A stretch of DNA of 64,000 nucleotides from the NCBI GenBank assembly GCA_041651115.1, contig JBAZJY010000002.1, positions 158,855 through 222,854 on the forward strand, written 5' to 3'. The DNA comes from Candidatus Omnitrophota bacterium (lineage in GTDB: Bacteria > Omnitrophota > Gorgyraeia > Gygaellales > Profunditerraquicolaceae). How positions within the stretch are numbered: the stretch's first letter is position 1; the number at the start of each line of letters is the position of its first letter. Below the pieces are notes generated by a model that worked only from the letters and a program-made list of their open reading frames with translations, was not told the origin of the DNA and searched no databases. This document shows, one piece after another, positions 11,736 to 58,944 of this stretch. The translations under genes were made by a program, and so were the position numbers.

Positions 11736-11736
11736 T

Positions 11737-12366: not shown

Positions 12367-12367
12367 T

Positions 12368-16326: not shown

Positions 16327-16337
16327 CGGAGGCGGAT

Positions 16338-16577
16338 ATGGAAGTAAAAGAAAAGATTAAAGATGTGTTCGTGGATCTTTTAAAGGTCAAGCGCGCAGAA
16401 TTAAAAGACGATATCAACCTGCAGAGTTCGATCGGCGTGGATTCCACGGAAATGGTAGAGAGCGTGATCGCCCTGGAAAAGGCCTTCGGCGTGAAATTAA
16501 GCCCGAAAGAGATCACCAAATTTTCCACGCTTAACGACATTGAAAAGAATATCCAGTCCAAGCTGGCAGGTAAATAA
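16338..16577 (+). CDS. acyl carrier protein
   Basis: 79 aa from ATG at 16338, which follows a GGAGG RBS. It has the phosphopantetheine-attachment motif GVDSTEMVE. Confidence 0.75.
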   Translation: MEVKEKIKDVFVDLLKVKRAELKDDINLQSSIGVDSTEMVESVIALEKAFGVKLSPKEITKFSTLNDIEKNIQSKLAGK

Positions 16578-16578
16578 A

Positions 16579-17379: not shown

Positions 17380-17391
17380 AGAGGTGGAAAT

Positions 17392-17838
17392 ATGGGCCAT
17401 ACGTGTAATTCCATTATCATCAACGCGCCTTACGATTTGATTTTTGATATTTCCAACGACATCCCGCGCTGGACAGAATTGTTCGGCACAGAGTACCAGA
17501 AAGCCGAGATTGTAAAAAAAGAAGGCAATAAGATCACCTTCCGGCTTACCGATGACGAAGGAAAATCATGGCAGTCATGGCGGCTCTTGTTCAAGGACAA
17601 TTACCTTGCGTATGCGGAAAGAGAAGAGCCGAAATTCCCCTTTAAATATATGAAGATCATTTGGCTCTATACACCTAAGCCCGGGGGAATTGAGTTGACC
17701 TGGATTCAGCATTTTGAAATGGATGAAAAGGCCAAATTCAACGACGAGCAGGTGGAAGGCTTTATCAATAAGCACTCCAAGGACAATCTTAAGATATTTA
17801 AAGAAGTTATTGAAAAAGAAGCCAAGACAAATAAGTGA
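17392..17838 (+). CDS. SRPBCC / polyketide cyclase-dehydrase (Polyketide_cyc2-like) protein
   Basis: 148 aa, START/Bet v1-like composition resembling TcmN-type ARO/CYC domains. Confidence 0.5.
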   Translation: MGHTCNSIIINAPYDLIFDISNDIPRWTELFGTEYQKAEIVKKEGNKITFRLTDDEGKSWQSWRLLFKDNYLAYAEREEPKFPFKYMKIIWLYTPKPGGIELTWIQHFEMDEKAKFNDEQVEGFINKHSKDNLKIFKEVIEKEAKTNK

Positions 17839-18959
17839 AAAGGTCCTTATTCATTATCTTCTGTCTTGAAGGCGCGATCCTCTCTTTTAACGTCGCTGCC
17901 TGTTCAGCTTTGATCCCCTCAATCTCCCAGGAATTTTCTGTTTCACAATTTATCGCCGGCAGGGCAGTGTGGCTGTATATGCTGCCTTACGGGATCGCCG
18001 CGCTTTTATACGGTCCGCTGGTGCGGCGCTTTGACGCGCGCAGGATAGAATTAACCTGTTTTTTATTTTTTTCTTTGGCAAACCTGTTTGCCGCGCTTTC
18101 CCCGGACATCAACAGGTTTTTCACCGCCAGGCTTTTAATGGGCATATTCGGCGCTTCGGTGATCCCGCTGGTGTTGATACTGATCGCCCGCCACGGCGCG
18201 GCAAAGACAAGGGGCAGGCAGATAGGCGTATTTTTCAGCGCTACTTTTGTTGCCTCGCTTGCCGGTTTATTCTTAAGCGGGCTGATTAATTGGCGGATGA
18301 TCTTTCTTATTCCCGGCCTGGCAGGCATTGCGCTTTGGGTATACATGTATTTTAACCTGCCAAGTTTCCAGAAAGACTGCGGCGGTTTTAAAATAAATTA
18401 CCTGGCTGCTTTTAAAAGCAGGGCAGTGGTTTCCATATTTACCTATATATTCCTTATCAGCCTGCTTTATCACGGCGTTCAGCAGTGGCTGGGAGTATTT
18501 TTCTCCGTGAAATTCGGTTTAAGCCAGTTTTTAGTCAGCATGCTGGTAACGCTTACCAGCCTAAGCGGCATATTCGGCGAGGTGATCGGCGGCTGGCTTG
18601 CGGATACGCTCGGCAGGATAAGGACCATTGATTTGGGCATAATGATCATGATAGTGTCTTTAATATTACTGCTTTTTAAAATACCGCTTGTGATGATTGC
18701 CGTAGCGATGATTGCCTGGGGCCTGGGCTGGACATTTAATCATGCGGGTTTGTCTACGCTGCTTACCGACCTGCCGTCTGAATTCCTTAACGAGGCAGCG
18801 AGTTTGAACAGCAGCGTGCGTTTTGTTTCCGGCGGTGTAGGCGCGGCAGCAGGCGGCATGATCATGCAAAAAAGTTTTTCAACCGGTTTCATCATCGCGG
18901 CCGTAGCTTTAACCGCACTGGCCGTTTCAGCGAAAAAACTATTAAACCAAGGGGGATAA
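17835..18959 (+). CDS. MFS transporter
   Basis: 374 aa, ~12 TM helices with MFS loop motifs. Confidence 0.7.
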   Translation: MKRSLFIIFCLEGAILSFNVAACSALIPSISQEFSVSQFIAGRAVWLYMLPYGIAALLYGPLVRRFDARRIELTCFLFFSLANLFAALSPDINRFFTARLLMGIFGASVIPLVLILIARHGAAKTRGRQIGVFFSATFVASLAGLFLSGLINWRMIFLIPGLAGIALWVYMYFNLPSFQKDCGGFKINYLAAFKSRAVVSIFTYIFLISLLYHGVQQWLGVFFSVKFGLSQFLVSMLVTLTSLSGIFGEVIGGWLADTLGRIRTIDLGIMIMIVSLILLLFKIPLVMIAVAMIAWGLGWTFNHAGLSTLLTDLPSEFLNEAASLNSSVRFVSGGVGAAAGGMIMQKSFSTGFIIAAVALTALAVSAKKLLNQGG

Positions 18960-18960
18960 C

Positions 18961-19734
18961 ATGTCAGAACTAAAAGGAAAGACAGCGATCGTTACCGGCG
19001 CAAGCCGGGGCATTGGTAAGGCGCTTGCCTGTACAGCAGCAAGCCTGGGGATCAATTTAGCAATTGCCGCCCGGCAGGAAGGCCCGTTAAAAGAGACGGC
19101 GGATGAAATCGCCAAAAAATATAACGTTCAGGTCTTGCCGGTAGCCTGCGATGTTACCAAGCTTGAAGACCTTGAGAATCTGGTGAATAAGGCAAAGGAA
19201 AAATTCGGGAAAATAGATATCCTGATCAATAACGCCGGCGTTTCCAGCCAATACCCGTTCCATGAACAGCCGATAGAAGACTTTGAGAAACTGGCGCATA
19301 CCAATTACCTGGGCTATGTGCGCTTGATTCGCCTGGTGATCAATGATATGATTAAAAATAAATCCGGGGCGATCATTAACATGGTTTCCGGGTCAACGCT
19401 TTGTGACCCTTTACCGAGGAATTTTATCGTCTATAGTTCTTTAAAAGTCGGCTTGCGCGCATTTTCCAAGGCTTTATTTTGGGAGTTGCGCGACTACGGC
19501 ATAAAAGTGACTTCTCTTTTACCCGGGGTCACCGATACGGACCTGACCGGAAAGCTTAAAGAGATTACCAATGAAAATTCCCGGTTAATGTCTACCGAGG
19601 CAATTGAAAATGCAGTGAAATTCGCGCTTACTGTCCCGGCAAATGTCTGTCCATTGGAAATTGCCGTGATCAACCAGCAGACGCCGTGGACTGCGCCGGT
19701 TATACCATACAAGCAGGCACACCCGGGAAAATAA
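18961..19734 (+). CDS. SDR family oxidoreductase (ketoreductase)
   Basis: TGASRGIGKA Rossmann motif, NNAG, and the YSSLK catalytic Tyr-Lys pair. Confidence 0.85.
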   Translation: MSELKGKTAIVTGASRGIGKALACTAASLGINLAIAARQEGPLKETADEIAKKYNVQVLPVACDVTKLEDLENLVNKAKEKFGKIDILINNAGVSSQYPFHEQPIEDFEKLAHTNYLGYVRLIRLVINDMIKNKSGAIINMVSGSTLCDPLPRNFIVYSSLKVGLRAFSKALFWELRDYGIKVTSLLPGVTDTDLTGKLKEITNENSRLMSTEAIENAVKFALTVPANVCPLEIAVINQQTPWTAPVIPYKQAHPGK

Positions 19735-19775
19735 CTTCGTCTGGTGCATCATCTTTGTTGAAAAAGGAGGAGAAT

Positions 19776-20381
19776 GTGAAGAAAATATTATTAGCAGCGA
19801 TGTTTTTACTGATTTCGGCTTCTCTGTCTTTCGCGCAAGGGGATAATCTTCTCATTGATGATTTTGAAGGTGCGATTTCCGGCGGGCCTGAAGGCACGGT
19901 TGATTTTGGGGCGGGCAACGGCTCCGCGGTCCAGGTTTTGGCAGCTACGGATATTAAACATTCCGGCAGCCATTCGCTTAAAGTTGATTATGATGCCCTG
20001 GCCGGAGGGTATATTTATGTGGCAAAGGGCAGCGGCCTTGATGCAAAAAATGCCGGATGGCTGGTTAAGCCGGAAGACATTGACTGGAAGGCTTACAAGG
20101 CAATAATTTTTTATATGTACGGCAGTGATTCCAAGGTTGATGTGGCATTTGACATCAAGGACAGCGGCGGGGAGCTGTGGCGTTTTATTGTCAAAGATGA
20201 TTTTACCGGTTGGAAACCGATCCTTTGCCCGTTTGCGGAGTTTTTTGCCCGCAGCGATTGGCAGCCGGAAAGCGCGGATAAAAACGGGAATATAGATTTC
20301 CCTCTTAAGCACTACCAATTTGAGCCGTTGCCCGAAGCAAAGGGCGTGCTTTATTTTGACGAAGTTGAGCTGGTAAAATAG
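19776..20381 (+). CDS. secreted beta-sandwich protein (CIA30/CBM-like), hypothetical
   Basis: GTG start after AAGGAGG. Signal peptide KKILLAAMFLLISASLSFAQG, then a DDFEG...W.......G galactose-binding-like pattern. Confidence 0.4.
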   Translation: MKKILLAAMFLLISASLSFAQGDNLLIDDFEGAISGGPEGTVDFGAGNGSAVQVLAATDIKHSGSHSLKVDYDALAGGYIYVAKGSGLDAKNAGWLVKPEDIDWKAYKAIIFYMYGSDSKVDVAFDIKDSGGELWRFIVKDDFTGWKPILCPFAEFFARSDWQPESADKNGNIDFPLKHYQFEPLPEAKGVLYFDEVELVK

Positions 20382-20405
20382 GATAACCTTAATGGAGGGC
20401 AGGAA

Positions 20406-20822
20406 ATGACTAAGCAGGATATCAAGAATTTGAAGAAACGCTACCTTGTCTGGCTGTATATGACCACCAAAGAGGCATTTGACCGCTACGAAAGAAAATT
20501 CACCCAGCTGGACATTGATACATTCATGCTTTTTGAGATGGAGAAAGAGCTTAAAGGCGCATACCTGCCCGGAGACAAAAAGACGTTGGAAAAATACATT
20601 AATGATTTTCGCGAATATATTGCCGAGAAAGAAAAAGTCTGCCTGAAGTTAAAGTATAAAGATAAAAGGATCGACCCGGAATTCCTTTTTCTTGATATAA
20701 AACTGGATGCGCTTGAAAAAGCGATCGTCAAAGAATTAGGCACAAAGGCCCTGGATGAGATAAAGGCGTTTTACGAATCTGAAATGACCGAGAAGATCTC
20801 GCGGGGGACAAAGCATAAATGA
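20406..20822 (+). CDS. hypothetical protein
   Basis: 138 aa charged helical ORF, co-directional and overlapping the next gene. No recognisable motif. Confidence 0.35.
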   Translation: MTKQDIKNLKKRYLVWLYMTTKEAFDRYERKFTQLDIDTFMLFEMEKELKGAYLPGDKKTLEKYINDFREYIAEKEKVCLKLKYKDKRIDPEFLFLDIKLDALEKAIVKELGTKALDEIKAFYESEMTEKISRGTKHK

Positions 20823-21730
20823 TCATTGACGCGCACAGCCACTGGCTTCCCGAAGAAATAATCAGCAATGCCCATTTTTATTCCAAGGCATGGGGCCAGA
20901 TCAGCTCGCAGATAGAGATCATGGCAGCTGCGGGCATTGATAAGGCGGTCTTAAGCTATCCGACTTCCGACGCGCACTTAAAATTAGGCGGGTCACTTGA
21001 GGTGGCGCAGATCTATAACGACAACGTGGCGGATATCATCAAGCAGGCGCCGGATCAATTCATCGGGGCAGCAATCCTGCCCGTGGAAGATAAAATGAAA
21101 ATGCTCGCGGAATTCAGGCGGGCAACCGAAGATCTCGGGTTTAAGGCATTGTCACTGGCATCAAGCTATGACGGCGCATATCTTGACGATAAGCGCTTTT
21201 TCCCGCTTTATGAAAAAGCAGCGCAAAAGAACCTGCCGGTCTTCGTGCATTCCCAGATCGTTAATCCTATCGGCTTTGAGCGCGTGCAGGATCCGCTGCT
21301 GACGCCGGTGATTGAGTATGTCTTTGATACGACGATCTGCATCGGCAAATTATTAATGAGCGGGGTGCTTGCGGAATTTAACAGCGTAAAATTCATTTTT
21401 GCGCATTTTGGCGGGGTAATCCCGCATCTTGCTTACCGTTTTGACGCGACTTACCAGATGCTGCGTTCAATAAATTTCGTCAAAGACTTAAAAGGCAATC
21501 CTACGCAATTCTTAAAGAATATTTATGTGGATACCAGCGGAGACGTGCGCCAGGCTAATTTCCTTGCCGCGCTTGAGCTGGTGGGCCCGGACCATATTTT
21601 GTGGGGCAGCGATTGGCCGGCAAAAAAAGACCCGGCTGCTTCGATCAAAGCAGTACAGGACTTAGACATATCCGCTGCCGATAAAACAGCAATCCTCGGC
21701 AACAATTTAGCAAAGCTGTTCGCTCTTTAA
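20819..21730 (+). CDS. amidohydrolase-2 family protein (PF04909, decarboxylase/hydrolase type)
   Basis: N-terminal IIDAHSHWLPEEI and C-terminal ILWGSDWP metal-ligand motifs of the ACMSD-type amidohydrolase family. Confidence 0.75.
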   Translation: MIIDAHSHWLPEEIISNAHFYSKAWGQISSQIEIMAAAGIDKAVLSYPTSDAHLKLGGSLEVAQIYNDNVADIIKQAPDQFIGAAILPVEDKMKMLAEFRRATEDLGFKALSLASSYDGAYLDDKRFFPLYEKAAQKNLPVFVHSQIVNPIGFERVQDPLLTPVIEYVFDTTICIGKLLMSGVLAEFNSVKFIFAHFGGVIPHLAYRFDATYQMLRSINFVKDLKGNPTQFLKNIYVDTSGDVRQANFLAALELVGPDHILWGSDWPAKKDPAASIKAVQDLDISAADKTAILGNNLAKLFAL

Positions 21731-22190
21731 TATACGCACGGTTAATTCATGCCTTTTTATTCTCGGCGCTGCAAACATTTTGCCGTCGGCTACGGTTTAC
21801 TCGTCGCTCTCAGGCATACTTTCGTAACATTAGGGCTTCCGCTCCTCGTAAAGCCTTGCCGACTGGCCTGTAAACGAATTGGCAAAAATTTGCAATGCGC
21901 CTGCGAACAAAAAGCATGAATTTATTAATGTGTATCCATAAGCATCCAAGATAAGTATAAATCATAGCAGCGGCTGGCTTGGCTTTGCTTTGAGCAGCAC
22001 GTAGGAGGCTTGAGCGGGCACGGTTGCCCTCATATACGTTAGGGCAGAGCGAAAGCCGACTCACGAGCGAAGATTTTCCTCGCAGGGGAAAATCAAGCGG
22101 TGCTGCGAAAAGCAAGACAAGGCAGACGCTACAAGATTGATTAGATAAGGAAATATAAGTTTGTTAAACTAACCAACAAGGAGTATAACG

Positions 22191-22940
22191 ATGCAAATGG
22201 TTAAGGATGTGCATTTGACGGGTAAGGATTTGACGCAGATGGTGCAGCTCAGACCGCAGGACGTGGGCAAATACGCGATCGTGCCCGGGCCAAAGGACCG
22301 GCTGGAAGTTTTATTAAAAAAGATGGAGAATCCGGTAAAGAATTTCTCATTCATGGAATACACCATGTACACCGGTATGTATCAAGGCATCAAGCTCACC
22401 GGTATAAACGGCGGCAGGTTCTCCACCGACACTTCCATCACTTCGGAAGTAATGTGCAATGCCGGTATACAGAATATCATCCGTATCGGCACCTGCGGTT
22501 CTTTGGATGAAAATATTAAAGTCGGGGACATTGTTGTGGTAGATAAAGTGATCCGCGGCGACGGAGTAACCCCGTATTATGTGGATAAGGATTTTCAGAC
22601 CGTAGCCGACAAAAAGATCACCGATACTTTATTTGAAGTTGCTAAAGGTATGGGTGTCAACGTGCATCGCGGATGCGCCTGGACAACCGACGCGCTGCTG
22701 CGCGAAACAAGGGAGATCGTAGAGGCAAAGCGCAAAGAAGGTGCGATTGCCGTGGATATGGTTTCCTCAACGCTCCTGACCATTGCCCAAACATATAATG
22801 TCAAAGCCGGATCGATCCTGGCGGTAAGCGACAACGTGATCACCGGCGAGATGGGTTTTATGAACCCGCTTTATTATATGGCAGAATCAAGCTTGATCAG
22901 CATTGCTTTGGAAACCGTAAAGAAGCTGGAAGGAAAATAA
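22191..22940 (+). CDS. PNP/UDP phosphorylase family nucleoside phosphorylase (MTA/5'-deoxyadenosine phosphorylase candidate)
   Basis: 249 aa. GTCGSL phosphate-binding segment and PNP_UDP_1 fold pattern. AAGGAG RBS. Confidence 0.65.
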   Translation: MQMVKDVHLTGKDLTQMVQLRPQDVGKYAIVPGPKDRLEVLLKKMENPVKNFSFMEYTMYTGMYQGIKLTGINGGRFSTDTSITSEVMCNAGIQNIIRIGTCGSLDENIKVGDIVVVDKVIRGDGVTPYYVDKDFQTVADKKITDTLFEVAKGMGVNVHRGCAWTTDALLRETREIVEAKRKEGAIAVDMVSSTLLTIAQTYNVKAGSILAVSDNVITGEMGFMNPLYYMAESSLISIALETVKKLEGK

Positions 22941-23881
22941 TGAAATTTTCTCCGCTTTTCTGGCCGATTGAATACAAGAATAGCGCTGTTTATATCCTTG
23001 ATGAGACGCTGCTGCCGCATAAAGTGCGCTATATAAAGGCAGGCAACTATATCCAGGCCTGCAAGGCGATTAAAGAAATGAAAACGCGCGCTGTGGGCCA
23101 GGTGATCTTGGTGTTCTATACTTTTCTGATGGTATTAAACCAGAATAAGGGCAAAAAAGATATTCTGCCGATATTAAAAAAAGTTAGCGAAGAAATTAAC
23201 GCCACGCGGCCCACGCTTTCCTTTAAATATCTCACGGATATGGTACTTGGTTGGGCTGCTCAAGGAGCGCCGTTAGAAAAAAGTATCCCGGGATTTTTGG
23301 AAACTTTAAAGAACAGCCGGATCAAACAGGCAGAACAAGCGGCAAAGCTCTTGAACGATAAAGACGTGGTCCTGACGCATTGCAATGTCAGCGGCCTCCT
23401 GCCTTTGATCGCGGAATTCTGCCGTAAAGAAAACAAAACGATCAGTTTTTTTGCCACGGAAACCCGGCCTTATTTACAGGGTTCGCGCCTGACTGCATGG
23501 GAATTAAGCGAAGCAGGCATTGACGTGACTATCATTGCCGATAATATGGTGGCCCAGGTCATGCAGGAAGGAAAGATCAATAAGGTGATCGTCGGCGCAG
23601 ACCACTTGGCGCAGAACGGCGACATTGCCAATAAGATCGGCACGTACCAGATCGCGATCATTGCCAGGCGTTTTAATGTGCCGTTCTATGTCTTATGCCC
23701 GCCGGCATCAAGGCTGGCAACGGGAAAAGAGATCAAGATCGAGATCCGGCCGGACAAAGAGTTATTGGAATATCAGGGTATTCAGCTTGCGCCAAAAGGG
23801 GCAAAAGGGTATTATCCGGCATTTGACGTCACACCCGCGGAATTGATCACTAAACACATTTACTTGGAGATTCCCCGATGA
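22940..23881 (+). CDS. mtnA: S-methyl-5-thioribose-1-phosphate isomerase family (eIF-2B alpha/beta/delta-like, MtnA-like)
   Basis: 313 aa with the e2B-family layout. The N-terminus ...AVYILDETLLPHKVRYIKAG..AC.AIKEM.TRAVGQ is typical of MtnA. Confidence 0.65.
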   Translation: MKFSPLFWPIEYKNSAVYILDETLLPHKVRYIKAGNYIQACKAIKEMKTRAVGQVILVFYTFLMVLNQNKGKKDILPILKKVSEEINATRPTLSFKYLTDMVLGWAAQGAPLEKSIPGFLETLKNSRIKQAEQAAKLLNDKDVVLTHCNVSGLLPLIAEFCRKENKTISFFATETRPYLQGSRLTAWELSEAGIDVTIIADNMVAQVMQEGKINKVIVGADHLAQNGDIANKIGTYQIAIIARRFNVPFYVLCPPASRLATGKEIKIEIRPDKELLEYQGIQLAPKGAKGYYPAFDVTPAELITKHIYLEIPR

Positions 23882-24879
23882 TTCTCAATAAAGAAAAAGC
23901 GCTCAAGGAAAACATCATCAATATCGGAAAAAAATTATACGGCTTGCGGCTGGTAGTTGCCCGTTCGGGTAACTTAAGCTGCCGCATTGATAAAAATAAT
24001 GTCTTGGTTACTGCCACCGGCACCTGCCTTGGCAGCTTGACTTATGACGATGTGATCAAAGTTGATCTGTCTTCTAATGTGGACATTAAAAAAGAACGGC
24101 TGACTTCAGAATTCCCCCTGCATTCGTTGATCTATAAAAATTTCCCTCATAAAGCAGTGATCCATTGCCATGCCACGCTGATCAATGCTTATTTTGCCGT
24201 TTATCCGGAGATCAAAGCATTGACTTTTGAAACCAAGCTTTACCTGGGTAACATCCCGGTTGTTGAGCAGGACACGCCCACAGTGACTAAGCCGGAAGCA
24301 GTGGTTGAGGCGCTTAAAAACAGCAATATCGTGGTTTTGAAAAATCACGGCGTAATTTCTGTTGCCGATAAATTCTCTGATGCCCTGTATCTTATCGAGG
24401 CGCTGGAAGAAGCGGTCAAGGTTGCGGCAGTGGCGCGTTTGTTTAAGAAAGATATCCTTGATGACCTGGATAAAGCAATAAAAGAAGACCTTGGCCAGGA
24501 TAATGCTTTTCTGATGTTTTCACAGGAGCATATTCAGGCGATCGTAGATCTGGTGAATAAAGACGAGCTGATCGCTAAAAAAGGCGAAGAATTAGACCTC
24601 ACGGTTAAATTGGCAATAAAACTCGACGGCCAGGACAAAGCCTATAAATTTAATTTTGAAAAGGGTAAGATCCCCAGGCTTGATAATGACGAGGACGCGG
24701 CATTTGTGATCTCTGCGCCTTCTGACGTTTGGGAAGCGGTATTCCTCGGCAAGATCGACCCGTTTGTGGCAACAATGCAGGGTAAGATGAAATTGAAGGG
24801 CGAATTCGGCAAGCTCTCGCGATGGTACGTGCCGTTTAACCGACTGTTCCAGTTATTTAAACAGGTAAAGATAAAATAA
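23878..24879 (+). CDS. class II aldolase/adducin-family protein fused to a C-terminal SCP2 sterol-carrier-like domain
   Basis: N-terminal 210 aa carry the class II aldolase Zn-His motifs (HCHA, KNHG). The C-terminal ~110 aa (LTVKLAIK...ATMQGKMKLKGEFGKL) match the SCP2 pattern. Confidence 0.6.
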   Translation: MILNKEKALKENIINIGKKLYGLRLVVARSGNLSCRIDKNNVLVTATGTCLGSLTYDDVIKVDLSSNVDIKKERLTSEFPLHSLIYKNFPHKAVIHCHATLINAYFAVYPEIKALTFETKLYLGNIPVVEQDTPTVTKPEAVVEALKNSNIVVLKNHGVISVADKFSDALYLIEALEEAVKVAAVARLFKKDILDDLDKAIKEDLGQDNAFLMFSQEHIQAIVDLVNKDELIAKKGEELDLTVKLAIKLDGQDKAYKFNFEKGKIPRLDNDEDAAFVISAPSDVWEAVFLGKIDPFVATMQGKMKLKGEFGKLSRWYVPFNRLFQLFKQVKIK

Positions 24880-24880
24880 A

Positions 24881-26353
24881 ATGTATATTAACGGTGAATT
24901 CAAGGAAACCCGCGAAAAGCAGGATGTAATTGACCCTTGTACCGGCCAGGCAATCGCTAAGGTTTCGCTTGCCGGCCCTGCCGAGATAAACGAGGCGCTG
25001 GAAGCGGCGAGAAATGCTTTTGATCACGGGCCATGGCCAAAGCTTCCGCTTCAGCAGCGTAAAGAATTCCTGCTGAAGATATCGCAGGCAATTTTTGATC
25101 ACGCCGCAGAGCTCGCCCGCATTGAAGCGCAAAATACAGGTAAGCCGATCAAAGAAGCCACGTTCATGGATGTGCCTTCCGCGGCAAAAACTTTTGAATA
25201 TTTCGCCAATAACCTGGAAAAGTATCTGGAGCCGGAAACCATAAACATTTCCGCGGAAACCCAGGCGCAGGCAAAGCTTATGCGTCAGCCGCAAGGAGTA
25301 GTTGTCCTGATCGTGCCGTGGAATTATCCGCTTTTGATCGCCGCATGGAAAATGGCTCAAGCCCTGGCAGCCGGCAATGCCGTAGTCCTTAAGTCCTCAA
25401 GCTTGACCCCGCTAAGCGTTTTAGAATTGGCAAAAATAATCAACGCTTGCGGCCTGCCTAAAGGCGCAGTAAATATTATCAACGGCTCGGGCGCAAAACT
25501 TGGCCAGGCTTTATGCGCTGATCCGGCCGTGGACATGGTTTCTTTTACCGGAAGCAATGAAGTGGGGAAACAGGTCATAAATTATGCTTCCCAAAACGTT
25601 AAAAAGCTGACGATAGAGCTGGGCGGGAAATCAGCTGCCGTTGTCTTAAAAGACGCCGACCTCGAAACGGCGGTGAACGGCCTATTGTGCGCGATTTTCT
25701 TGAACCAGGGCCAGATGTGCACGGCAATGTCGCGGATATTTGTTGATGCGGCGGTATATGAAAAATTCTCTGCGGATTTCATTACCAAGGCAAAAAAGAT
25801 CAAATTAGGCAGCAGCCTTGATTTTGAAACTCAAATGGGGCCGTTGATCTCTGAGGCGCAGCGTAAAAAAGTCATTGCCTACGTGGAAAAGGCAGTTAGG
25901 GACGGAGCAAAGTTACTTTGCGGCGGGAAAGCCCCTTCCGCAGAGCTTAAAGACGGCTTTTTCTTTGAGCCGACAGTATTGACGGACATTAAGCCGGATA
26001 TGCCTATTTTTAAAGAGGAAGTTTTCGGGCCGGTTGCCTGTTTGAATAAATTTTCCGGCATTGACGAAGCAGCTAAGCTTGCGAATTCAAGCGAATTCGG
26101 TTTAGCGGCAAGTATTTGGACAAAAGACGAAAAAACCGCGCAAGAGCTGGCTTTGCAGATCAATGCCGGCACAGTTTGGATCAATACCTACGGTATGTTT
26201 TACAACGAACTTCCTTACGGCGGATTTAAGCAAAGCGGTTTTGGAAAAGAACTGGGCAGGGAAGGGTTTTTGGAATACACGCGGCTGAAAAATATCGTTT
26301 CAGACCGCGCGGAAAGCGGTAAGCCGCTGGTAAGTTACTGGTACGGATTCTAA
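24881..26353 (+). CDS. aldehyde dehydrogenase family protein
   Basis: 490 aa. ELGGKS and catalytic QGQMCTA motifs. Confidence 0.85.
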   Translation: MYINGEFKETREKQDVIDPCTGQAIAKVSLAGPAEINEALEAARNAFDHGPWPKLPLQQRKEFLLKISQAIFDHAAELARIEAQNTGKPIKEATFMDVPSAAKTFEYFANNLEKYLEPETINISAETQAQAKLMRQPQGVVVLIVPWNYPLLIAAWKMAQALAAGNAVVLKSSSLTPLSVLELAKIINACGLPKGAVNIINGSGAKLGQALCADPAVDMVSFTGSNEVGKQVINYASQNVKKLTIELGGKSAAVVLKDADLETAVNGLLCAIFLNQGQMCTAMSRIFVDAAVYEKFSADFITKAKKIKLGSSLDFETQMGPLISEAQRKKVIAYVEKAVRDGAKLLCGGKAPSAELKDGFFFEPTVLTDIKPDMPIFKEEVFGPVACLNKFSGIDEAAKLANSSEFGLAASIWTKDEKTAQELALQINAGTVWINTYGMFYNELPYGGFKQSGFGKELGREGFLEYTRLKNIVSDRAESGKPLVSYWYGF

Positions 26354-26368
26354 AACAGGAGCAGGTAA

Positions 26369-27883
26369 ATGGATGTGATAAAACTTCTGGAAGAAAAAGC
26401 AAAGAAGCTTTCTGACAAACCGGCAATAATTTTCCGTGACCAGTTAATAACTTTCCGCTATTTACGGGATACCGTATTCAAGCTATCCGATTCCCTGAAA
26501 AAACTGGGCATAAGAAAAGGCGACAAAGTCGCGATCTATTTGCCGAGCTGGCCGGAATATGTTTACAGTTACCTCGCTGCCTGGTGCCTGGGCGCGACTT
26601 GTGTGCCGCTTGATTTTATGCTCACCGGTGACGAGCTTGCTTCCTGTATTTCTCATTCGGAGAGCAAATTATTGATCGCCAAGCATAAGGCGAATCTCGC
26701 GCTCCCCGATGTTAAATCCCGCTGCCCCAAGCTTAAAAACATCGTCATCTGCCAGGAAAAAATTAACGGGATGCTTAATTTTGAAGAATTGATCGTTTCC
26801 GGATCAAGCAGCGCCCCAACTCCGGTTTTTAATGACAAAGATTACGCGATCATTTTTTATACTTCCGGCACAACCGGAAAACCCAAGGGCGTTTTGATCA
26901 ATTATCTCCAGCTAAGCGCGCCGCCGAAATCAATGGAATATTTTGTGGATCTAAACGAAAAAGATATCACGGTTTGCGCGCTTCCTTTTTCGCACCTTGG
27001 CGGCCTGATCTATATCCAGAATTGCCTTTCTTACGGAATTAGCGTAGTTTTAATGGAACGGTTCATGCCGCTTGAATTCTTGAAGATCATCCAGAATTAT
27101 AAGGTGACCTGTTTCTGGATCGTCCCCTCAATGTATTATGCGTTCCTGCAGTTAAAAGAGTTTGAGAGCTTTGATTTGTCCAGCCTGCGCTGGATGGTTA
27201 CTTTCGGAGCGTCCAATTCGCCGGATGCCCTGCGCCGTTTTCATCAGTTTTGCCCCAAGGCGCACCTTTTAAACGGATGGGGTTTGACAGAGACAAATGC
27301 GCCGACGGTAGTCCTTCCATTAGGCTCAAACAAGATCGAGAGCGTAGGCAGGCCTGCTCCGTGGATTGAAGTAAAGATCTTTAATGAAAACGATCAGGAA
27401 TTACCCCAAGGCCAGGTAGGGGAGGTAGTAGTAAAAAGCTGGGTAGTTACCGACGGTTATTATAAAGACCCGGGCTTGACTTCCGAGACGCTGCGCAACG
27501 GCTGGTTCCACACCGGAGATTTAGGTAAATTCGACAGCGAGGGGCATTTATATATCGTCGGCAGAAAAAAAGAAATGATCAAGGTAGGCGGCGAGATCGT
27601 CTTTGAGCCGGAAGTGGAAGCGGCAATACATAAACATACGGCAATTGCCGAGGCAGCGGTAGTGGGCGTGCCCGATAAATTAAGGGGCGAGGTGCCCAAG
27701 GCTTATATCAGCGTAAAAGAAGGAGAGAAGCTCTCCGAAGAAGACCTGCGTTATTTCCTGCGCCAACACCTGGCGCATTTTAAAATCCCGCATTATTTTG
27801 AATTCAGGGAAACTCTCCCGAAAAACCGCACAGGCAAAATAGATAAAGAATTGCTGAGGCAGGGCCGGCTCGCGGACAAATGA
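26369..27883 (+). CDS. AMP-dependent synthetase/ligase (acyl-CoA synthetase family)
   Basis: YTSGTTGKPKGV P-loop and a C-terminal GEI.F..E segment. Confidence 0.8.
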   Translation: MDVIKLLEEKAKKLSDKPAIIFRDQLITFRYLRDTVFKLSDSLKKLGIRKGDKVAIYLPSWPEYVYSYLAAWCLGATCVPLDFMLTGDELASCISHSESKLLIAKHKANLALPDVKSRCPKLKNIVICQEKINGMLNFEELIVSGSSSAPTPVFNDKDYAIIFYTSGTTGKPKGVLINYLQLSAPPKSMEYFVDLNEKDITVCALPFSHLGGLIYIQNCLSYGISVVLMERFMPLEFLKIIQNYKVTCFWIVPSMYYAFLQLKEFESFDLSSLRWMVTFGASNSPDALRRFHQFCPKAHLLNGWGLTETNAPTVVLPLGSNKIESVGRPAPWIEVKIFNENDQELPQGQVGEVVVKSWVVTDGYYKDPGLTSETLRNGWFHTGDLGKFDSEGHLYIVGRKKEMIKVGGEIVFEPEVEAAIHKHTAIAEAAVVGVPDKLRGEVPKAYISVKEGEKLSEEDLRYFLRQHLAHFKIPHYFEFRETLPKNRTGKIDKELLRQGRLADK

Positions 27884-28908
27884 AGGACATTAAAGACCTT
27901 ACGCTGAAAGAATTGGAAAAGGCGCTGGCAGATATAGCCGAAGAGCGTTTTCACGCCCGCCAAGTCTGGTCGTGGATATATAAAAAGGCTGCGGCTGACT
28001 TCGGCTCAATGAGTAACTTATCCGCCGATTTACGCAGCAGCCTGGCAAAAGAATTCTTTGTCCGTTCTATTTCCTTATCCGATAAGTTGATCTCTATAGA
28101 CGGCACGCAAAAGCTGCTATTTAAGCTAAAAGACGGCAACTTTATCGAAACGGTGATTATACCGGCGGAAAAGCGCGTAACCGGATGCCTTTCCACGCAG
28201 GCAGGATGTAAATTCGCCTGCGGTTTTTGCGCCAGTGGCGCAACAGGATTTAAAAGGAACCTGACAACCGGGGAAATAATTGAAGAGGCCGTTCTTCTAA
28301 AAAATAATTCCGCGGATAATAAACTTACCCACATCGTATTTATGGGTACGGGCGAGCCGCTGGATAATTACGACAATCTGCTTAAGGCAATACGGATCAT
28401 TAATTCAGCAGACGGCCTGAATATCGGCGCGCGCAGGATCACCATTTCTACCTGCGGGATAATCCCCGGGATCGCGCGGCTGGCGCATGAAGGCATCCAG
28501 GTAGAACTGTCAGTCTCCCTGCATGCCAGCGACGACAAAACGCGGTCGCTCTTGATGCCGGTAAATAAGATCTATCCTTTAAAAGAATTACTGGACGCCT
28601 GCCGCGCGTATGTCGAAAAGACCGGCCGTCAGGTTACCTTTGAATACATTTTGATCAAAGGCGTGAATTCCGGTTTGCAAAGCGCGCAAAAGTTGATTAC
28701 AATATTAAAGGGGTTTAACTGCAAGGTAAACCTTATTCTTTCTAACCCCGCGGCTGGTTTCCGCGGCCAGCCTCCGGGCAAACTGGAAATTTTAATGTTT
28801 AAAGACCTGCTTTTAAAATCCGGGGTAAATGCTACGCTGCGTAAAAGCCGTGGAGCGGATATTGCCGCTGCCTGCGGGCAATTGAGATTGAAGTATGAGA
28901 AGGGTTAG
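27880..28908 (+). CDS. rlmN: 23S rRNA/tRNA adenine-C2 methyltransferase (radical SAM)
   Basis: CKFACGFCASG radical SAM cluster, an RlmN-type N-terminus and 342 aa length. Confidence 0.85.
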   Translation: MKDIKDLTLKELEKALADIAEERFHARQVWSWIYKKAAADFGSMSNLSADLRSSLAKEFFVRSISLSDKLISIDGTQKLLFKLKDGNFIETVIIPAEKRVTGCLSTQAGCKFACGFCASGATGFKRNLTTGEIIEEAVLLKNNSADNKLTHIVFMGTGEPLDNYDNLLKAIRIINSADGLNIGARRITISTCGIIPGIARLAHEGIQVELSVSLHASDDKTRSLLMPVNKIYPLKELLDACRAYVEKTGRQVTFEYILIKGVNSGLQSAQKLITILKGFNCKVNLILSNPAAGFRGQPPGKLEILMFKDLLLKSGVNATLRKSRGADIAAACGQLRLKYEKG

Positions 28909-29572
28909 GTGCCAGGTGCCAGGTATCAGGTATCAGGTTTTTAAAAAATTAAGTTTAATTTTACTCGCCGTTGGTTTCTTCTTTTTTGGCTGCGCCCGGA
29001 AAGAAACGGTGAATATCGGATCAAGCGGTACAAGCATCGTCTGTTACGGCGATAGCTTAACTTTCGGCTACGGCGCCGGGCCGGGGGAGGATTATCCTAC
29101 TGCCCTGGCAAAATTAGTAGATGTTCCGGTGGTCAACGCGGGCGTTGACGGCGACACGAGTGCCGAGGGGCTTGGGCGTATAGATTCCGGCGTCTTGGAC
29201 AGGGACCCGTTCCTGGTGATCATTGAGTTCTGCGGCAATGATTTTTTAAAAAAAGTCCCGATGGAGGAGACGCTTAAGAATATAAGCGCGATGATCGATA
29301 AAATACATGCCTACGGATCAATGGTCGCGCTGGTAGATATCAGCGCGGGCCTTTTACTTAAAGAATACCGGCAGCAGTTCAGGCAGCTTGCCCGGCGTAA
29401 AAACGTGCTTTTTATCCCCGCGATATTAAGCGGCATCGTTACTAACCCGAGCCTCAAAAGTGATTTTCTCCACCCTAATGCAAGCGGCTATAGTATGATC
29501 GCCCACAAAATATACCGCGCGATCTCCCCCTACCTTCAGAAAAACAAGCTTGCCAGATTAACCAAGAAGTAG
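28895..29572 (+). CDS. SGNH/GDSL hydrolase (arylesterase-like)
   Basis: CYGDSLTFGYG block I and GDTSAEG block II. Confidence 0.7.
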   Translation: MRRVRCQVPGIRYQVFKKLSLILLAVGFFFFGCARKETVNIGSSGTSIVCYGDSLTFGYGAGPGEDYPTALAKLVDVPVVNAGVDGDTSAEGLGRIDSGVLDRDPFLVIIEFCGNDFLKKVPMEETLKNISAMIDKIHAYGSMVALVDISAGLLLKEYRQQFRQLARRKNVLFIPAILSGIVTNPSLKSDFLHPNASGYSMIAHKIYRAISPYLQKNKLARLTKK

Positions 29573-32360: not shown

Positions 32361-33736
32361 GCATAATAAAATTTGATAACGTCAGCGAGAAATACCGCAT
32401 TAAGTTCGTCAGGGAAAATAAAGTCTCATGGGAAGAGATATGGGCGCTTAAAGACGTCTCTTTTGAAATAAAAGAGGGAGAGGTATTCGGGGTAATCGGC
32501 CAGAACGGCGCCGGCAAAACTACGCTGCTTAAGCTGATTGCCGGTATGATCGTGCCTGATTCAGGCAGTATCAATGTCGGAGGCAAGGTTGCTACTCTGA
32601 TGGAATTAGGCGCCGGCTTTAACGCCGAATTTACTGGCAGGGAAAATATCACGCTCAATGCCCGGATCTACGGCTTGGCGGAAGACGTGTTCAGCCGCAC
32701 GGTAGAGCAGATCATTGCTTTTGCAGACCTCGGCAAGTTCATAGACGCGCCGATCAAATATTACTCGCAGGGTATGTATATGCGTCTTGCCTTTGCCTTG
32801 GCAATTTTTATCAATCCCGATATCCTGCTGATCGACGATGTCCTGGCAGTGGGGGACACCGAGGCGCAGCAGAAATGCATTAAGAAGGTAATGGAATTAA
32901 AGCAGTCCGGTAAGACCGTTGTGGTGGTGACCCATGATATGGATATGATCTGCCGGCTCTGTAACCGCGCCTTACTCCTTGAAAAAGGCAAGATTATTTT
33001 GCAGGGCGATCCGGAAAGGGTGGTTTCCCGTTATACGGAAACCTCCGGCGACAAAAAAGGCATAGCGGTAATGGAAAAGTCCGGCATGCGCATAGTTTTT
33101 AATAACGGCAAGATTAGCCTTAGCTATAACGGCGTGGCGATCACCAATAAAATGGCCGGCTATATGGCATTCCTTCCGTTTTCCAATACCTGGAATTTCT
33201 CTTTTAATCTTTACTGGGAGGCAAGGCCGTTGCCGGAGAACAAGATCATCGCGGAAGGCAAATCCAGTGACGCTGCGATTTCCCAGAATTGGCAGTTTTC
33301 CCTGGAAGACGGTTGTTTATGCGCGCAGGCGGATATTAAAGGGGGCATTAAAGAGCCGCATATAGATTGGTTACTTTCCTGCCAATACGACCAATGGCAG
33401 GTTTTAGGCCAGCGCGGCGATTTCCCTCCTTATCTGCATAGGACAAACTGGCATGATATCGGCCTGGCCGAATCACCCGGCGGCATACTTGCCATATCCA
33501 GCAGCGCGCAGGAGAATGGGCTGCCCGGGATCATTTTTAGCGTTGACGACAAAGACGCCAGGATAAAACTGCTTAATACCGGTATGGAACTGGAGTGCCA
33601 CGTTATACAGCTATGCTTAAACAATAATAACCTTATTTCTTTCCGTATGATGATTTTCCCGGAGAGAAGAAAATTTGATGAATATCTGGAGATGAAGAAG
33701 GCGCAGCATGAGCAGGGTTCTGACATCGCGGCTTAA
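32357..33736 (+). CDS. wzt: ABC transporter ATP-binding protein with C-terminal extension domain (Wzt-like)
   Basis: Walker A GQNGAGKTT, an ABC signature and Walker B, followed by a ~230-aa C-terminal non-ATPase domain. Confidence 0.8.
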   Translation: MSIIKFDNVSEKYRIKFVRENKVSWEEIWALKDVSFEIKEGEVFGVIGQNGAGKTTLLKLIAGMIVPDSGSINVGGKVATLMELGAGFNAEFTGRENITLNARIYGLAEDVFSRTVEQIIAFADLGKFIDAPIKYYSQGMYMRLAFALAIFINPDILLIDDVLAVGDTEAQQKCIKKVMELKQSGKTVVVVTHDMDMICRLCNRALLLEKGKIILQGDPERVVSRYTETSGDKKGIAVMEKSGMRIVFNNGKISLSYNGVAITNKMAGYMAFLPFSNTWNFSFNLYWEARPLPENKIIAEGKSSDAAISQNWQFSLEDGCLCAQADIKGGIKEPHIDWLLSCQYDQWQVLGQRGDFPPYLHRTNWHDIGLAESPGGILAISSSAQENGLPGIIFSVDDKDARIKLLNTGMELECHVIQLCLNNNNLISFRMMIFPERRKFDEYLEMKKAQHEQGSDIAA

Positions 33737-36104: not shown

Positions 36105-36105
36105 T

Positions 36106-37512: not shown

Positions 37513-37522
37513 GAGACAAGAT

Positions 37523-39947: not shown

Positions 39948-39948
39948 A

Positions 39949-52093: not shown

Positions 52094-52103
52094 GGGGTTT
52101 ATC

Positions 52104-53462: not shown

Positions 53463-53473
53463 AAGGAGAATAC

Positions 53474-55847: not shown

Positions 55848-55890
55848 GCGCTTAATTTACACCTTTGTCAACCTTAAGTCAAGCCGCGCC

Positions 55891-58921: not shown

Positions 58922-58944
58922 GTTTAAGCCTCCCCTTAACACCG

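Follow-up and report, generated by a model that had tools for sequence, protein, structure and literature searches.

Five translationally coupled genes in a 64,000-nucleotide stretch of DNA from an uncultured Omnitrophota bacterium (the window) encode a nucleoside phosphorylase, a 1-phosphate isomerase, a class II aldolase, an aldehyde dehydrogenase, and a CoA ligase. We consider it probable, though well short of certain, that this cassette (22191-27883, + strand) provides a DHAP-shunt-type route for an adenosyl-derived nucleoside originating from the B12-binding radical SAM enzyme of the same cluster (14866-16326), with the 5'-substituent left open. Such routes, in which the leftover adenosine part of SAM is turned into a glycolytic sugar phosphate and an acyl-CoA, are of a known kind.

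Enzymes encoded by the cassette

Gene calls placed the five ORFs exactly where the initial annotation had located them, and domain matches together with conserved catalytic residues confirmed the enzyme series it had named. Because adjacent genes share 1-4 nt or lie 1-15 nt apart, the cassette very probably forms one transcript, which runs on into the genes for RlmN (27880-28908, + strand; TIGR00048 equivalog passed, 387 > 290), whose start shares 4 nt with the end of the ligase gene, and for a GDSL/TesA-like hydrolase 3' of it (28916-29572, + strand). Though co-transcribed, these two probably have no role in the pathway; their synteny with the cassette is confined to Omnitrophota. The catalytic residues are intact in all five genes, and those of the isomerase (Cys and Asp), the aldolase (Asn, Glu, and three His), and the aldehyde dehydrogenase (Glu and Cys) are kept in all clades. 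About 30 independent loci show this same gene order, far above chance.

The first gene (22191-22940, + strand, 249 aa; PNP_UDP_1 PF01048, E 2.4e-35) codes for a divergent, DeoD-like hexameric NP-I nucleoside phosphorylase, which scored below every NCBIfam cut-off (score/cut-off: uridine phosphorylase 123/280, DeoD 98.5/230, MTAP 25/274.85, HpnG 52.6/187). A family-profile search of the PDB returned Bacillus DeoD-type PNP/adenosine phosphorylase (1xe3, 2ac7) at the top and the hexameric MTAP of S. solfataricus (1jds) at rank 6. The proposed PNP family membership stands, but in type the enzyme is a hexameric DeoD/uridine phosphorylase and not an MtnP. The family retains His8, Arg37, Arg98, and the purine-type SDN Asp214. 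The ribose-binding Glu, which is universal in such phosphorylases, is replaced by Val, and the neighbour-subunit Arg, a phosphate Arg, by Met or Gly; both substitutions argue against our preferred reading. The enzyme presumably catalyzes the first step, in which 5'-deoxy(-substituted) adenosine and Pi would yield a sugar-1-phosphate and adenine.

The second gene (22940-23881, + strand, 313 aa; IF-2B PF01008, E 6.5e-59) encodes a predicted MtnA-like isomerase converting an aldose-1-phosphate to a ketose-1-phosphate. It clears the TIGR00524 subfamily cut-off (207.7 > 185.85), narrowly misses the mtnA equivalog models (239.9/279 and 256.9/271), and is closest in the PDB to MtnA of T. maritima (1t9k, E 2.6e-49). 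All 26 orthologues keep both catalytic residues, Cys (TxCN) and Asp (G[AS]D).

In the product of the third gene (23878-24879, + strand, 333 aa), a class II metal-dependent aldolase domain (aa 1-195; Aldolase_II PF00596, E 3e-35) is fused to an SCP2 lipid-carrier domain (aa ~211-333; PF02036, 32.3 bits, cut-off 21.3). Asn32, Glu78, His96, His98, and His157 are unchanged across 52 sequences. The family is small, with about 30 clusters at 50% identity; every one of them carries a canonical SCP2 domain, and this half is conserved as strongly as the catalytic half. In the AF2 model (pLDDT 86.8, pTM 0.83), the aldolase domain matches FucA of T. thermophilus (TM 0.84) and DrdA (6btg, TM 0.76). The modelled SCP2 domain (pLDDT 94.1) is most similar to T. 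thermophilus SCP2 (2cx7, TM 0.85), followed by the SCP2 domains of UbiJ and alkylsulfatase, while the structural Eis-type SCP2 ranks far lower; its predicted fold is that of the free lipid-carrier type. Most plausibly, the domain holds the aldolase at the lipid substrate, or else in a membrane-associated complex that includes the radical SAM enzyme.

The fourth gene (24881-26353, + strand, 490 aa; Aldedh PF00171, E 9e-171) encodes a predicted non-acylating NAD(P)+ aldehyde dehydrogenase, forming a carboxylic acid; in 29/35 related loci, the aldolase gene has an ALDH gene behind it. In the PDB, the enzyme is closest to dehydrogenases for phenylacetaldehyde and betaine aldehyde, and it carries Glu (ELGGK) and Cys (GQMC), the catalytic residues of the hydrolytic type, which sets the direction of this step from aldehyde to acid. 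The last gene (26369-27883, + strand, 504 aa; AMP-binding PF00501 and AMP-binding_C PF13193, E 7e-83), found in 12/35 related loci, encodes a predicted FadD/MenE-like adenylate-forming acyl-CoA (or acyl-ACP) ligase. Its top NCBIfam model is long-chain-fatty-acid-CoA ligase PRK06187 (428/476), and its closest PDB entry is M. tuberculosis FadD5. Assignment to the acetyl-CoA synthetase type was rejected (259/729).

These assignments also bear on whether the module handles SAM-derived nucleosides at all. It might instead break down ordinary nucleosides in the manner of the haloarchaeal route (ribose-1-P via ribulose-1-P to DHAP and glycolaldehyde, then glycolate), or work in the biosynthetic direction, condensing DHAP with a fatty aldehyde. 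The "aldolase" might also be a decarboxylase or a dehydratase of the MtnB type. Consistent with this, the phosphorylase is nearest to ordinary DeoD-type adenosine/purine phosphorylases, the aldolase weakly matches haloarchaeal ribulose-1-P aldolase (62 bits), MtnB (58-61), and 3-oxo-tetronate-4-P decarboxylase (91), and aldol reactions are reversible with condensation favoured (PMC6079011). However, the irreversible dehydrogenase behind the aldolase indicates an aldehyde product, aldolase models outscore the MtnB and decarboxylase models, ribose-1-P kinase and RuBP phosphatase are both absent, and plain nucleoside catabolism would not predict the constant radical SAM linkage described below. 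We therefore regard this alternative as improbable.

Co-inheritance with a B12-binding radical SAM gene in two phyla

The cassette is embedded in a lipid-type cluster on the same strand. The cluster is headed by two FabF-like ketosynthases (12368-13630 and 13631-14869; both PF00109/PF02801, fabF subfamily 452 and 365 bits), a pair conserved in Omnitrophota loci. These are followed by the BchE/HpnJ-like B12-binding radical SAM enzyme (14866-16326; PF02310 and PF04055), which remains under all cut-offs (BchE 206/481, HpnJ 157/578). Gene calls and Pfam then gave an ACP (16338-16577), a PF04199 cyclase (16579-17379), an SRPBCC protein (17392-17838), an MFS protein (17835-18959), an SDR/KR (18961-19734), a CBM11-like protein (19776-20381), the helical protein u138 (20406-20822; gene call), and a LigW-like Amidohydro_2 protein (20819-21730), whose closest PDB entries are 5-carboxyvanillate and gamma-resorcylate decarboxylases. 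The order from the ACP to the Amidohydro_2 gene (16338-21730) is kept in more than 15 loci. Neither this FabF/ACP/lipid-export setting nor the SCP2 fusion had featured in the initial annotation.

We compared 35 related loci from Omnitrophota and Ca. Desulfofervidus. Across these two phyla, the MtnA-like and aldolase-SCP2 genes are kept together with an orthologous B12-radical SAM gene (37-74% identity), which lies beside or within the PNP-MtnA-aldolase genes wherever the locus sequence extends far enough, except in L033. In L027 and L038 it is located between isomerase and aldolase, in L028 and L031 immediately 5' of the phosphorylase. The further companions are genes for FabF/ACP/cyclase or for lipid export (MMPL/LolA-like/DUF1302). 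The B12-radical SAM enzyme is the presumed source of the nucleoside handled by the cassette.

This linkage speaks against the initially proposed general housekeeping role, in which 5'-deoxyadenosine and MTA would be salvaged for every radical SAM and SAM-dependent enzyme of the cell; the position in a lipid cluster would then be incidental. The triad does represent the DHAP shunt enzyme classes (PMC6079011) and shares a transcript with rlmN, itself a housekeeping radical SAM gene, and radical SAM genes abound in the window, although Pfam gives seven (starts 14866, 27880, 33708, 36013, 37523, 38700, and 39949) and not the eight counted before. Yet only the B12-radical SAM family is co-inherited with the cassette, whereas the radical SAM/SPASM group at 33708-41202 showed cassette synteny in none of the 35 loci; this also supports our preferred reading. 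Moreover, the phosphorylase fails the MTAP model, and in L031 a canonical MTAP (TIGR01694, 278.2 > 274.85) is encoded at a distance of 3 kb from the module. Housekeeping salvage also leaves the lipid-export setting and the fusion to SCP2 unaccounted for, features which favour a pathway-specific role. A general housekeeping function thus appears improbable.

Candidate route and its substrate

According to our preferred reading, the phosphorylase would strip adenine by phosphorolysis to give 5-deoxy(-substituted) ribose-1-phosphate, the isomerase would form the corresponding ribulose-1-phosphate, and the metal-dependent aldolase would split it into DHAP and an aldehyde. The aldehyde would be oxidized irreversibly to an acid and converted by the FadD-like ligase to a thioester, so that DHAP and acyl-CoA could return to the neighbouring FabF/ACP machinery for lipid or polyketide synthesis. 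What the sequences show directly is the content and order of genes, the identity of domains and folds, the conservation of catalytic residues, and co-inheritance in two phyla; we infer all substrates and products, the direction of flux before the dehydrogenase acts, and the connection with the radical SAM product. The previously suggested conversion of a 5'-deoxynucleoside to DHAP and an aldehyde remains the best reading of the chemistry, but not as a free-standing disposal route for the radical SAM enzymes of the window. As for the nucleoside, we tentatively put forward, at somewhat less than even chances, 5'-deoxyadenosine made stoichiometrically and processed to DHAP, acetaldehyde, acetate, and acetyl-CoA in a private salvage loop instead of general housekeeping.

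Sister loci bear on the intermediate. In 14 of them, genes for an LsrF-type thiolase and a Tdh-like Zn-dehydrogenase are inserted beside aldolase/ALDH; the thiolase exceeds the NF006081 equivalog cut-off of 297 in both scanned loci (354 and 362 bits in L030 and L034) and was assigned in the other 12 by tblastn (60-84% identity to the L030 protein). No LsrF is encoded in the window itself. On paper, this pair could convert 5-deoxyribulose-1-P to DHAP and acetyl-CoA, and since the known LsrF substrate has the constitution of C4-oxidised 5-deoxyribulose-1-P, a 5-deoxypentulose phosphate intermediate is indicated.

Several observations argue against the preferred reading. A small polar substrate needs no SCP2 domain, yet the aldolase always has one, and the ligase is FadD/MenE-like, not acetate-activating. 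Given the canonical MTAP in L031, a second phosphorylase for plain 5'-deoxyadenosine looks redundant. A class IV aminotransferase fills the phosphorylase slot in five of the 35 loci and the isomerase is missing in two, and clusters with aldolase/ALDH plus ADH/LsrF would have two routes per substrate. In E. coli, Pfs cleavage by itself suffices for detoxification (PMC10986504), so five-gene salvage in a small genome needs another justification.

The nucleoside may instead carry a hydrophobic group. Specifically, the radical SAM enzyme could place 5'-deoxyadenosyl on a hydrophobic acceptor (a lipid or an acyl-ACP alkene) or otherwise make a 5'-substituted adenosine, so that the adenosyl carbon enters the product. 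Phosphorylase (cf. HpnG, MqnB), isomerase, and SCP2-aldolase would then trim the ribose to DHAP and lipid-CH2-CHO, and dehydrogenase and ligase would make of this aldehyde either an acyl-CoA that serves as starter or a lipid extended by a carboxymethyl group, for export by the MMPL/LolA-like/DUF1302 proteins. This would fit the invariant SCP2 domain, which resembles free lipid carriers (2cx7, TM 0.85), the FadD-like ligase, the export genes within the cassette operon of L027, L028, L030, L037, and L038, the dedicated phosphorylase kept in L031 despite its MTAP, and the unusually high conservation of the phosphorylase (82-92% identity between species whose RlmN shows 48-65%). To our knowledge, however, no B12-binding radical SAM enzyme adenosylates carbon, and the one here is BchE/HpnJ-like, not HpnH/MqnE-like. 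The equivalog-level LsrF is a better fit for a substrate with an acetyl (methyl-ketone) group than for a lipid one, amphiphilic substrates would have to suit three enzymes, and in the five loci with an aminotransferase a housekeeping enzyme would have to take the bulky nucleoside. We rate incorporation of the adenosyl carbon as possible but rather unlikely.

Comparison with known pathways

The preferred DHAP-shunt-type reading draws support from established precedents, namely drdK/I/A, the E. coli DHAP shunt (PMC10986504), and the fluoroacetate route. The DHAP shunt consists of MtnP or Pfs+MtnK, MtnA, and Ald2, and 5-deoxyribose disposal of DrdK/DrdI/DrdA (PMC6079011, PMC10986504), with a phosphorylase-initiated variant known from gene clusters (PMC6079011). 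The likeness to both noted in the initial annotation is one of analogy, not orthology: the phosphorylase is hexameric and DeoD-like instead of MTAP-type (25 vs 274.85), and the aldolase belongs to a separate SCP2-fused family (34 bits and 22% identity to DrdA 6btd). In addition, the route is lengthened to a thioester by aldehyde dehydrogenase and CoA ligase, and it is set within a B12-radical SAM/FabF/ACP/lipid-export cluster, not standalone or with sugar transporters.

The fluoroacetate pathway of Streptomyces cattleya and Nocardia brasiliensis comprises FlA, FlB, 5-FDRP isomerase, aldolase, and fluoroacetaldehyde dehydrogenase (PMC3999930). It shares four consecutive steps with the cassette (PNP, MtnA-like isomerase, fuculose-type aldolase, ALDH), leading from 5'-X-5'-deoxyadenosine to X-acetate. 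We know of no other biosynthetic pathway that uses these four in succession. Domain searches of the window found no fluorinase/chlorinase (SAM hydroxide adenosyltransferase family); the nucleoside source would instead be a radical SAM enzyme. FlB is MTAP-like, unlike the DeoD-like phosphorylase here, and a CoA ligase is added.

HpnH-HpnG converts adenosylhopane to ribosylhopane and MqnE-MqnB acts on aminofutalosine (PMC13459092); in both, as here, the gene for a radical SAM enzyme precedes one of the PNP_UDP_1 family, whose product takes (here presumably) adenine off a SAM-derived adenosyl compound, an order that favours adenosyl incorporation. The hopanoid likeness extends to the lipid context, the HpnN-like MMPL exporter in sister loci, and the HpnJ-like radical SAM similarity. 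Nevertheless, all hpn models score far under their cut-offs (HpnG 52.6/187, HpnJ 157/578, HpnN 77/752), the cluster contains no HpnH/MqnE-type enzyme or squalene-hopene cyclase, and the hopanoid and futalosine pathways lack the isomerase, aldolase, and ALDH found downstream here.

In autoinducer-2 degradation, LsrF converts 3-hydroxy-2,4-pentanedione-5-phosphate to DHAP and acetyl-CoA (PMC8016206), the predicted end products of the aldolase/ALDH/ligase route of the window. No LsrK or LsrG is encoded near the LsrF-type genes of the sister loci, and their substrate might be supplied by oxidising 5-deoxyribulose-1-P, a link made by no paper in the literature searched. Relative to the known DHAP shunt, the distinguishing elements are the tie to one B12-radical SAM enzyme in a conserved lipid-type cluster and the fusion of the aldolase to a lipid-binding domain.

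Gene content and conserved neighbourhood of the cassette

ORF calls together with Pfam and NCBIfam scans placed the five genes named in the initial annotation exactly where it had put them, on the + strand at 22191-27883. The first encodes a phosphorylase of the PNP_UDP_1 family and is followed by genes for an IF-2B/MtnA-like isomerase, a class II aldolase that bears an SCP2 domain at its C-terminus, an aldehyde dehydrogenase (ALDH), and an AMP-forming ligase; domain E-values span 1e-35 to 1e-171. Neighbouring ORFs either share 1-4 nt or leave gaps of 1-15 nt between them, and no kinase gene was found in the operon. The phosphorylase gene is preceded by a 460-bp non-coding gap (21731-22190) that gave no promoter-like or terminator-like match and is missing in relatives; in the related locus L005, for example, the Amidohydro_2 gene abuts the phosphorylase gene. 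A riboswitch or leader in this gap was dismissed, as a permissive Rfam scan of 21650-22250 returned one match at chance level. At gathering score, Rfam reported only two tRNAs in the whole window, a divergent pair at 57263-57345 (- strand) and 57456-57528 (+ strand).

The region at 10731-21730 encodes an ApbA-like reductase, a tandem TIGR04076 protein, two FabF-like ketosynthases (KS), a BchE/HpnJ-like B12-radical SAM enzyme (14866-16326), an ACP, a PF04199 cyclase, and SRPBCC, MFS, SDR, and LigW-like decarboxylase proteins. This cluster also occurs in loci L005, L034, L035, and L037.

We compared 35 related loci, compiled from a species-representative genome scan, homologue look-ups, and a tblastn table. 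In Omnitrophota, the gene order is FabF-FabF-B12 radical SAM-ACP-PF04199 cyclase-SRPBCC-(MFS)-SDR-(u138)-Amidohydro_2, which continues as [phosphorylase or class IV aminotransferase]-isomerase-(small IF-2B-like protein)-aldolase/SCP2-ALDH-(ligase). Between species with 48-65% RlmN identity, KS1, the B12-radical SAM enzyme, SRPBCC, and SDR reach 74-92%. Orthologues of the B12-radical SAM gene (37-74% identity) are also found in Ca. Desulfofervidus (L028) and in Gygaella-type Omnitrophota (L027, L038), where they form one operon with the phosphorylase, isomerase, aldolase-SCP2, and ligase genes; this operon includes an MMPL transporter, a LolA-like protein, and a DUF1302 protein, and an ALDH gene in L028 only, with none in L027 and L038. 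L037 combines the FabF/ACP genes with the export genes. In L027 and L038, the isomerase and aldolase genes flank the radical SAM gene, which in L028 and L031 is found immediately 5' of the phosphorylase gene.

Some loci depart from this pattern. The slot that the phosphorylase occupies in the clade of the window is taken in five of the 35 loci by a BCAT/PabC-like class IV aminotransferase, located between Amidohydro_2 and the isomerase (L030 7812-8615, L034 7795-8607, and L035-L037). The isomerase is missing from L013, from L014, and from L026, a degenerate locus; L033 has no radical SAM gene nearby.

The initial annotation had counted eight radical SAM enzymes in the window, of which Pfam supports seven, and had proposed the cassette as a disposal route for the radical SAM enzymes of the region in general. 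This proposal was not supported. Because the radical SAM genes at 33708-41202 show no synteny with the cassette in any related locus and linkage to RlmN is confined to Omnitrophota, the cassette is, as judged from gene neighbourhood, associated with a single radical SAM enzyme and a lipid- or polyketide-like pathway rather than with regional radical SAM enzymes generally. General housekeeping salvage appears very unlikely. The comparison flags a cluster of about 17 genes, FabF-FabF-B12 radical SAM-ACP-cyclase-SRPBCC-SDR-decarboxylase-shunt with or without MMPL/LolA-like/DUF1302, that is conserved across Omnitrophota, a phylum from which we know of no isolates.

Several further features were observed in the window and the related loci. 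The second radical SAM group (33708-41202) comprises a 798-aa radical SAM protein and a B12-radical SAM protein whose genes overlap by 92 nt, as well as three SPASM-domain radical SAM proteins, and is preceded by ABC-2/ABC transporter genes and followed by glycosyltransferase genes. A helical protein of 126-150 aa (u138) encoded at 20406-20822, with the motif RYLIWLYKTTKEAxDRxERKFTQ and no Pfam or NCBIfam match, is kept in 16 related loci, where its gene lies between SDR and Amidohydro_2. All clade-2 loci encode, between isomerase and aldolase, a protein of 146-164 aa that resembles solely the C-terminal Rossmann-like half of IF-2B/MtnA (L027 9508-9999, L028 9546-10004, L030 9543-10019) and is absent from the clade of the window. 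An ArsP_1 permease, DsbD_2, and SBF/ACR3-like trio is found at 50921-54574, 23 kb downstream of the cassette, and at 4019-8323 in L033, where the genes for the isomerase, small IF-2B, aldolase-SCP2, and ALDH follow immediately downstream. The window opens with YkuD-AccA-PadR (51-1874); the same three genes (L027 2410-4715, L038 2425-4727) lie immediately 5' of the ligase-phosphorylase-isomerase module in Gygaella-type genomes, and in the window MarR, TolC/HlyD/AcrB efflux, and FabF genes are inserted between them and the module.

Assignment of the cassette enzymes

The phosphorylase scored below the cut-off of every curated model, including uridine phosphorylase (TIGR01718, 123.3 bits against 280.3), HpnG (52.6 against 187.1), and the DeoD models NF004489 (98.5 against 230) and TIGR00107 (92.9 against 232). 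We place it with the DeoD-like hexameric type and not with MtnP, the score against the MTAP model TIGR01694 being 25.0 with a cut-off of 274.85. When a profile was built from 20 orthologues, Bacillus DeoD-type purine/adenosine phosphorylases were its best matches of solved structure, and the hexameric S. solfataricus MTA phosphorylase ranked sixth. We examined the active site by reference to E. coli enzymes, namely Arg43, Glu181, and Asp204 of PNP and Gln166/Arg168 of uridine phosphorylase (UP). The purine-type Asp (SDN, Asp204) is invariant in the family, and alignment to UP showed a gap at the uracil-binding insertion (Gln166/Arg168). In all 22 orthologues, the phosphate-binding Arg43 is replaced by Met or Gly and the ribose-binding Glu181, to our knowledge universal in the superfamily, by Val. 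Since the SDN Asp is kept, the uracil insertion is absent, and both the ribose Glu and the phosphate Arg are replaced, the enzyme is by sequence a purine-type but atypical phosphorylase. A replacement of the 5'-OH-binding His by Met was withdrawn as an interpretation, as a conserved His8 is present upstream in the motif [DE][VI]H[LI][TS]xxDL; His8 probably fills the 5'-OH-binding role. In L031, where the module operon has the order B12 radical SAM-phosphorylase-isomerase-aldolase-ALDH, a canonical MTAP (13961-14746, - strand; TIGR01694 278.2 bits, above 274.85) is encoded 3 kb from this operon. The cluster phosphorylase is therefore an extra paralogue in this locus, and a second phosphorylase for plain 5'-deoxyadenosine (5'-dAdo) looks redundant there.

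The isomerase passed the MtnA-related subfamily model TIGR00524 (207.7 bits, above 185.85) and just missed the mtnA equivalog model (239.9 against 279). All 26 orthologues keep its catalytic Cys148 (THCN) and Asp221 (GAD).

In the aldolase domain, the phosphate-binding Asn, the catalytic Glu, and three metal-binding His are invariant across 52 sequences. The predicted structure (pLDDT 86.8, pTM 0.83) superposes on fuculose-1-phosphate aldolases, FucA being the nearest fold, and on DrdA, the 5-deoxyribulose-1-P aldolase (TM 0.76-0.79, with a weak sequence match of 34 bits and 22% identity). The aldolase failed the FucA equivalog models (TIGR01086 44.7 against 400, FucA_Meth 97.4 against 250, PRK08660 115.7 against 203) as well as the MtnB dehydratase models (TIGR03328 58.3 against 137, NF006672 60.7 against 226). 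The SCP2 domain passed PF02036 (32.3, above 21.3), and its model (pLDDT 94.1) matches 2cx7 with a TM of 0.85-0.86; structural matches included free lipid-carrier SCP2 proteins, UbiJ, and SCP2 domains of alkylsulfatases, and the purely structural SCP2 domain of Eis was not among the close ones. This half is as conserved as the catalytic half, and its D-P-F-V-A..Q-G-K.K.K-G segment is invariant or nearly so. About 30 full-length aldolase-SCP2 representatives were found among 1.84 billion clusters (50% identity), which defines a small family previously without assigned function.

Glu and Cys, the catalytic pair of hydrolytic, irreversible enzymes, are both present in the ALDH. The presence of the Glu indicates a hydrolytic enzyme and rules out a CoA-acylating or LuxC-type ALDH, which would permit the reverse, biosynthetic direction. 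According to model scores and PDB relatives, the ligase is FadD/MenE-like and not an acetyl-CoA synthetase.

Proposed route and the nature of the nucleoside

The genes and their order, the folds and catalytic residues of their products, and their co-inheritance are consistent with a route in which the B12-radical SAM enzyme would cleave one SAM per turnover and the resulting adenosyl-derived nucleoside would undergo phosphorolysis, isomerisation, and aldol cleavage to DHAP and an aldehyde, the latter being oxidised and then activated to a thioester. We consider such a radical SAM-linked conversion of a SAM-derived nucleoside to DHAP and a thioester reasonably likely; readings in which the substrate does not derive from SAM seem highly doubtful.

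In its conservative variant, which is quite possible and which we hold tentatively, 5'-dAdo would be converted via acetaldehyde and acetate to acetyl-CoA in a private salvage loop. This loop would return C2 and C3 units to the adjacent FabF/ACP machinery and relieve product inhibition, and the SCP2 domain would either hold the lipid substrate or serve as the anchor of a complex that includes the radical SAM enzyme. If true, a single radical SAM enzyme would here have its own fixed 5'-dAdo salvage route, which runs as far as a CoA thioester.

Alternatively, the nucleoside might carry a hydrophobic or other carbon substituent, so that the adenosyl moiety of SAM serves as a carbon building block. 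Here, the B12-radical SAM enzyme would make a 5'-C-substituted adenosine (with a lipid, acyl-ACP, or other group), which the phosphorylase, isomerase, SCP2-aldolase, ALDH, and ligase would trim to DHAP and an X-CH2-CO-thioester; the latter would prime or extend a FabF/ACP product for outer-membrane export. In favour of this reading are the canonical SCP2 domain on the aldolase, a ligase that is FadD-like, the presence of lipid-export genes nearby, the changes at the ribose site in the phosphorylase, and the nearby canonical MTAP of L031. We nevertheless regard it as rather unlikely, with LsrF-type genes in sister loci pointing to a methyl-terminated 5-deoxypentulose phosphate. If true, lipid or polyketide biosynthesis would draw carbon from SAM in a new way, and a two-carbon carboxyl unit would be put on unactivated carbon by a new anoxic route.

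The LsrF-type thiolase genes are paired with genes for a Tdh-like Zn-dehydrogenase and lie beside the aldolase and ALDH genes in 14 of the 35 loci (L030 12836-14712; L034 11061-12899; L003, L005, L006, L008-L012, L017, L020, L021, and L024); the pair is absent from the window. In L030 and L034, the two loci scanned, the DeoC-family protein passed the LsrF equivalog model (354 and 362 bits against 297), and the remaining twelve genes were identified as tblastn matches sharing 60-84% identity with the L030 protein. Across clades in which aldolase-SCP2 is only about 38% identical, the thiolase copies reach 76-84% (60% in L024). LsrF acts on 3-hydroxy-2,4-pentanedione-5-phosphate, moving its acetyl group to CoA with release of DHAP (PMC8016206). 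We infer that 5-deoxyribulose-1-phosphate oxidised at C4, the carbinol beside the methyl, would have the constitution of this substrate, which would support a methyl-terminated 5-deoxypentulose phosphate and hence 5'-dAdo as source; our literature search found no paper linking LsrF with 5-deoxyribulose-1-P. The sister loci may thereby possess a second, thiolytic branch. The idea that the ligase and the LsrF/dehydrogenase pair are mutually exclusive was refuted by the full locus table, as both occur in L003, L005, L017, and L024.

Relation to known systems

Literature searches for this cluster, and for DUF1302, DUF1329, or MMPL together with radical SAM enzymes, found no description of it. A hopanoid cluster was rejected, as the HpnG score of the phosphorylase, HpnJ (156.7 against 577.6), and HpnN (77 against 751.85, in L028) all remained below cut-off; neither HpnH nor a squalene-hopene cyclase (SHC) was found in the window or the loci. 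Clusters called 'ladderane' by antiSMASH have been reported in Omnitrophota (PMC9902471), and ladderane clusters share a TIGR04076 protein and two FabF genes with the window cluster. Judged by defining genes, a ladderane cluster was rejected too, as the B12-radical SAM enzyme failed TIGR04072 (74.7 against 360); a comparative study of the Kuenenia ladderane clusters does not mention a phosphorylase, isomerase, or aldolase (PMC2649909).

If the nucleoside carries a substituent, the closest parallel would be the fluoroacetate pathway (PMC3999930), and the logic of HpnH/HpnG or MqnE/MqnB (PMC13459092) would be extended by DHAP-shunt chemistry. A halometabolite cluster of the fluoroacetate or chloroethylmalonyl type was itself ruled out by the absence of a SAM-dependent halogenase from the scanned ORFs: Pfam scans of window ORFs of at least 100 aa, with the exception of three (50619-50924, 55569-55877, and 58535-58969), revealed no fluorinase/chlorinase domain.

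Overall, the cassette would work by analogy with the DHAP shunt and the Drd pathway (PMC6079011, PMC10986504). It shares with them an MtnA-family isomerase with catalytic Cys and Asp, and differs from the DHAP shunt in its phosphorylase, which falls outside MtnP. Beyond both systems, it adds the ALDH and ligase steps, the SCP2 fusion, and a fixed radical SAM partner.
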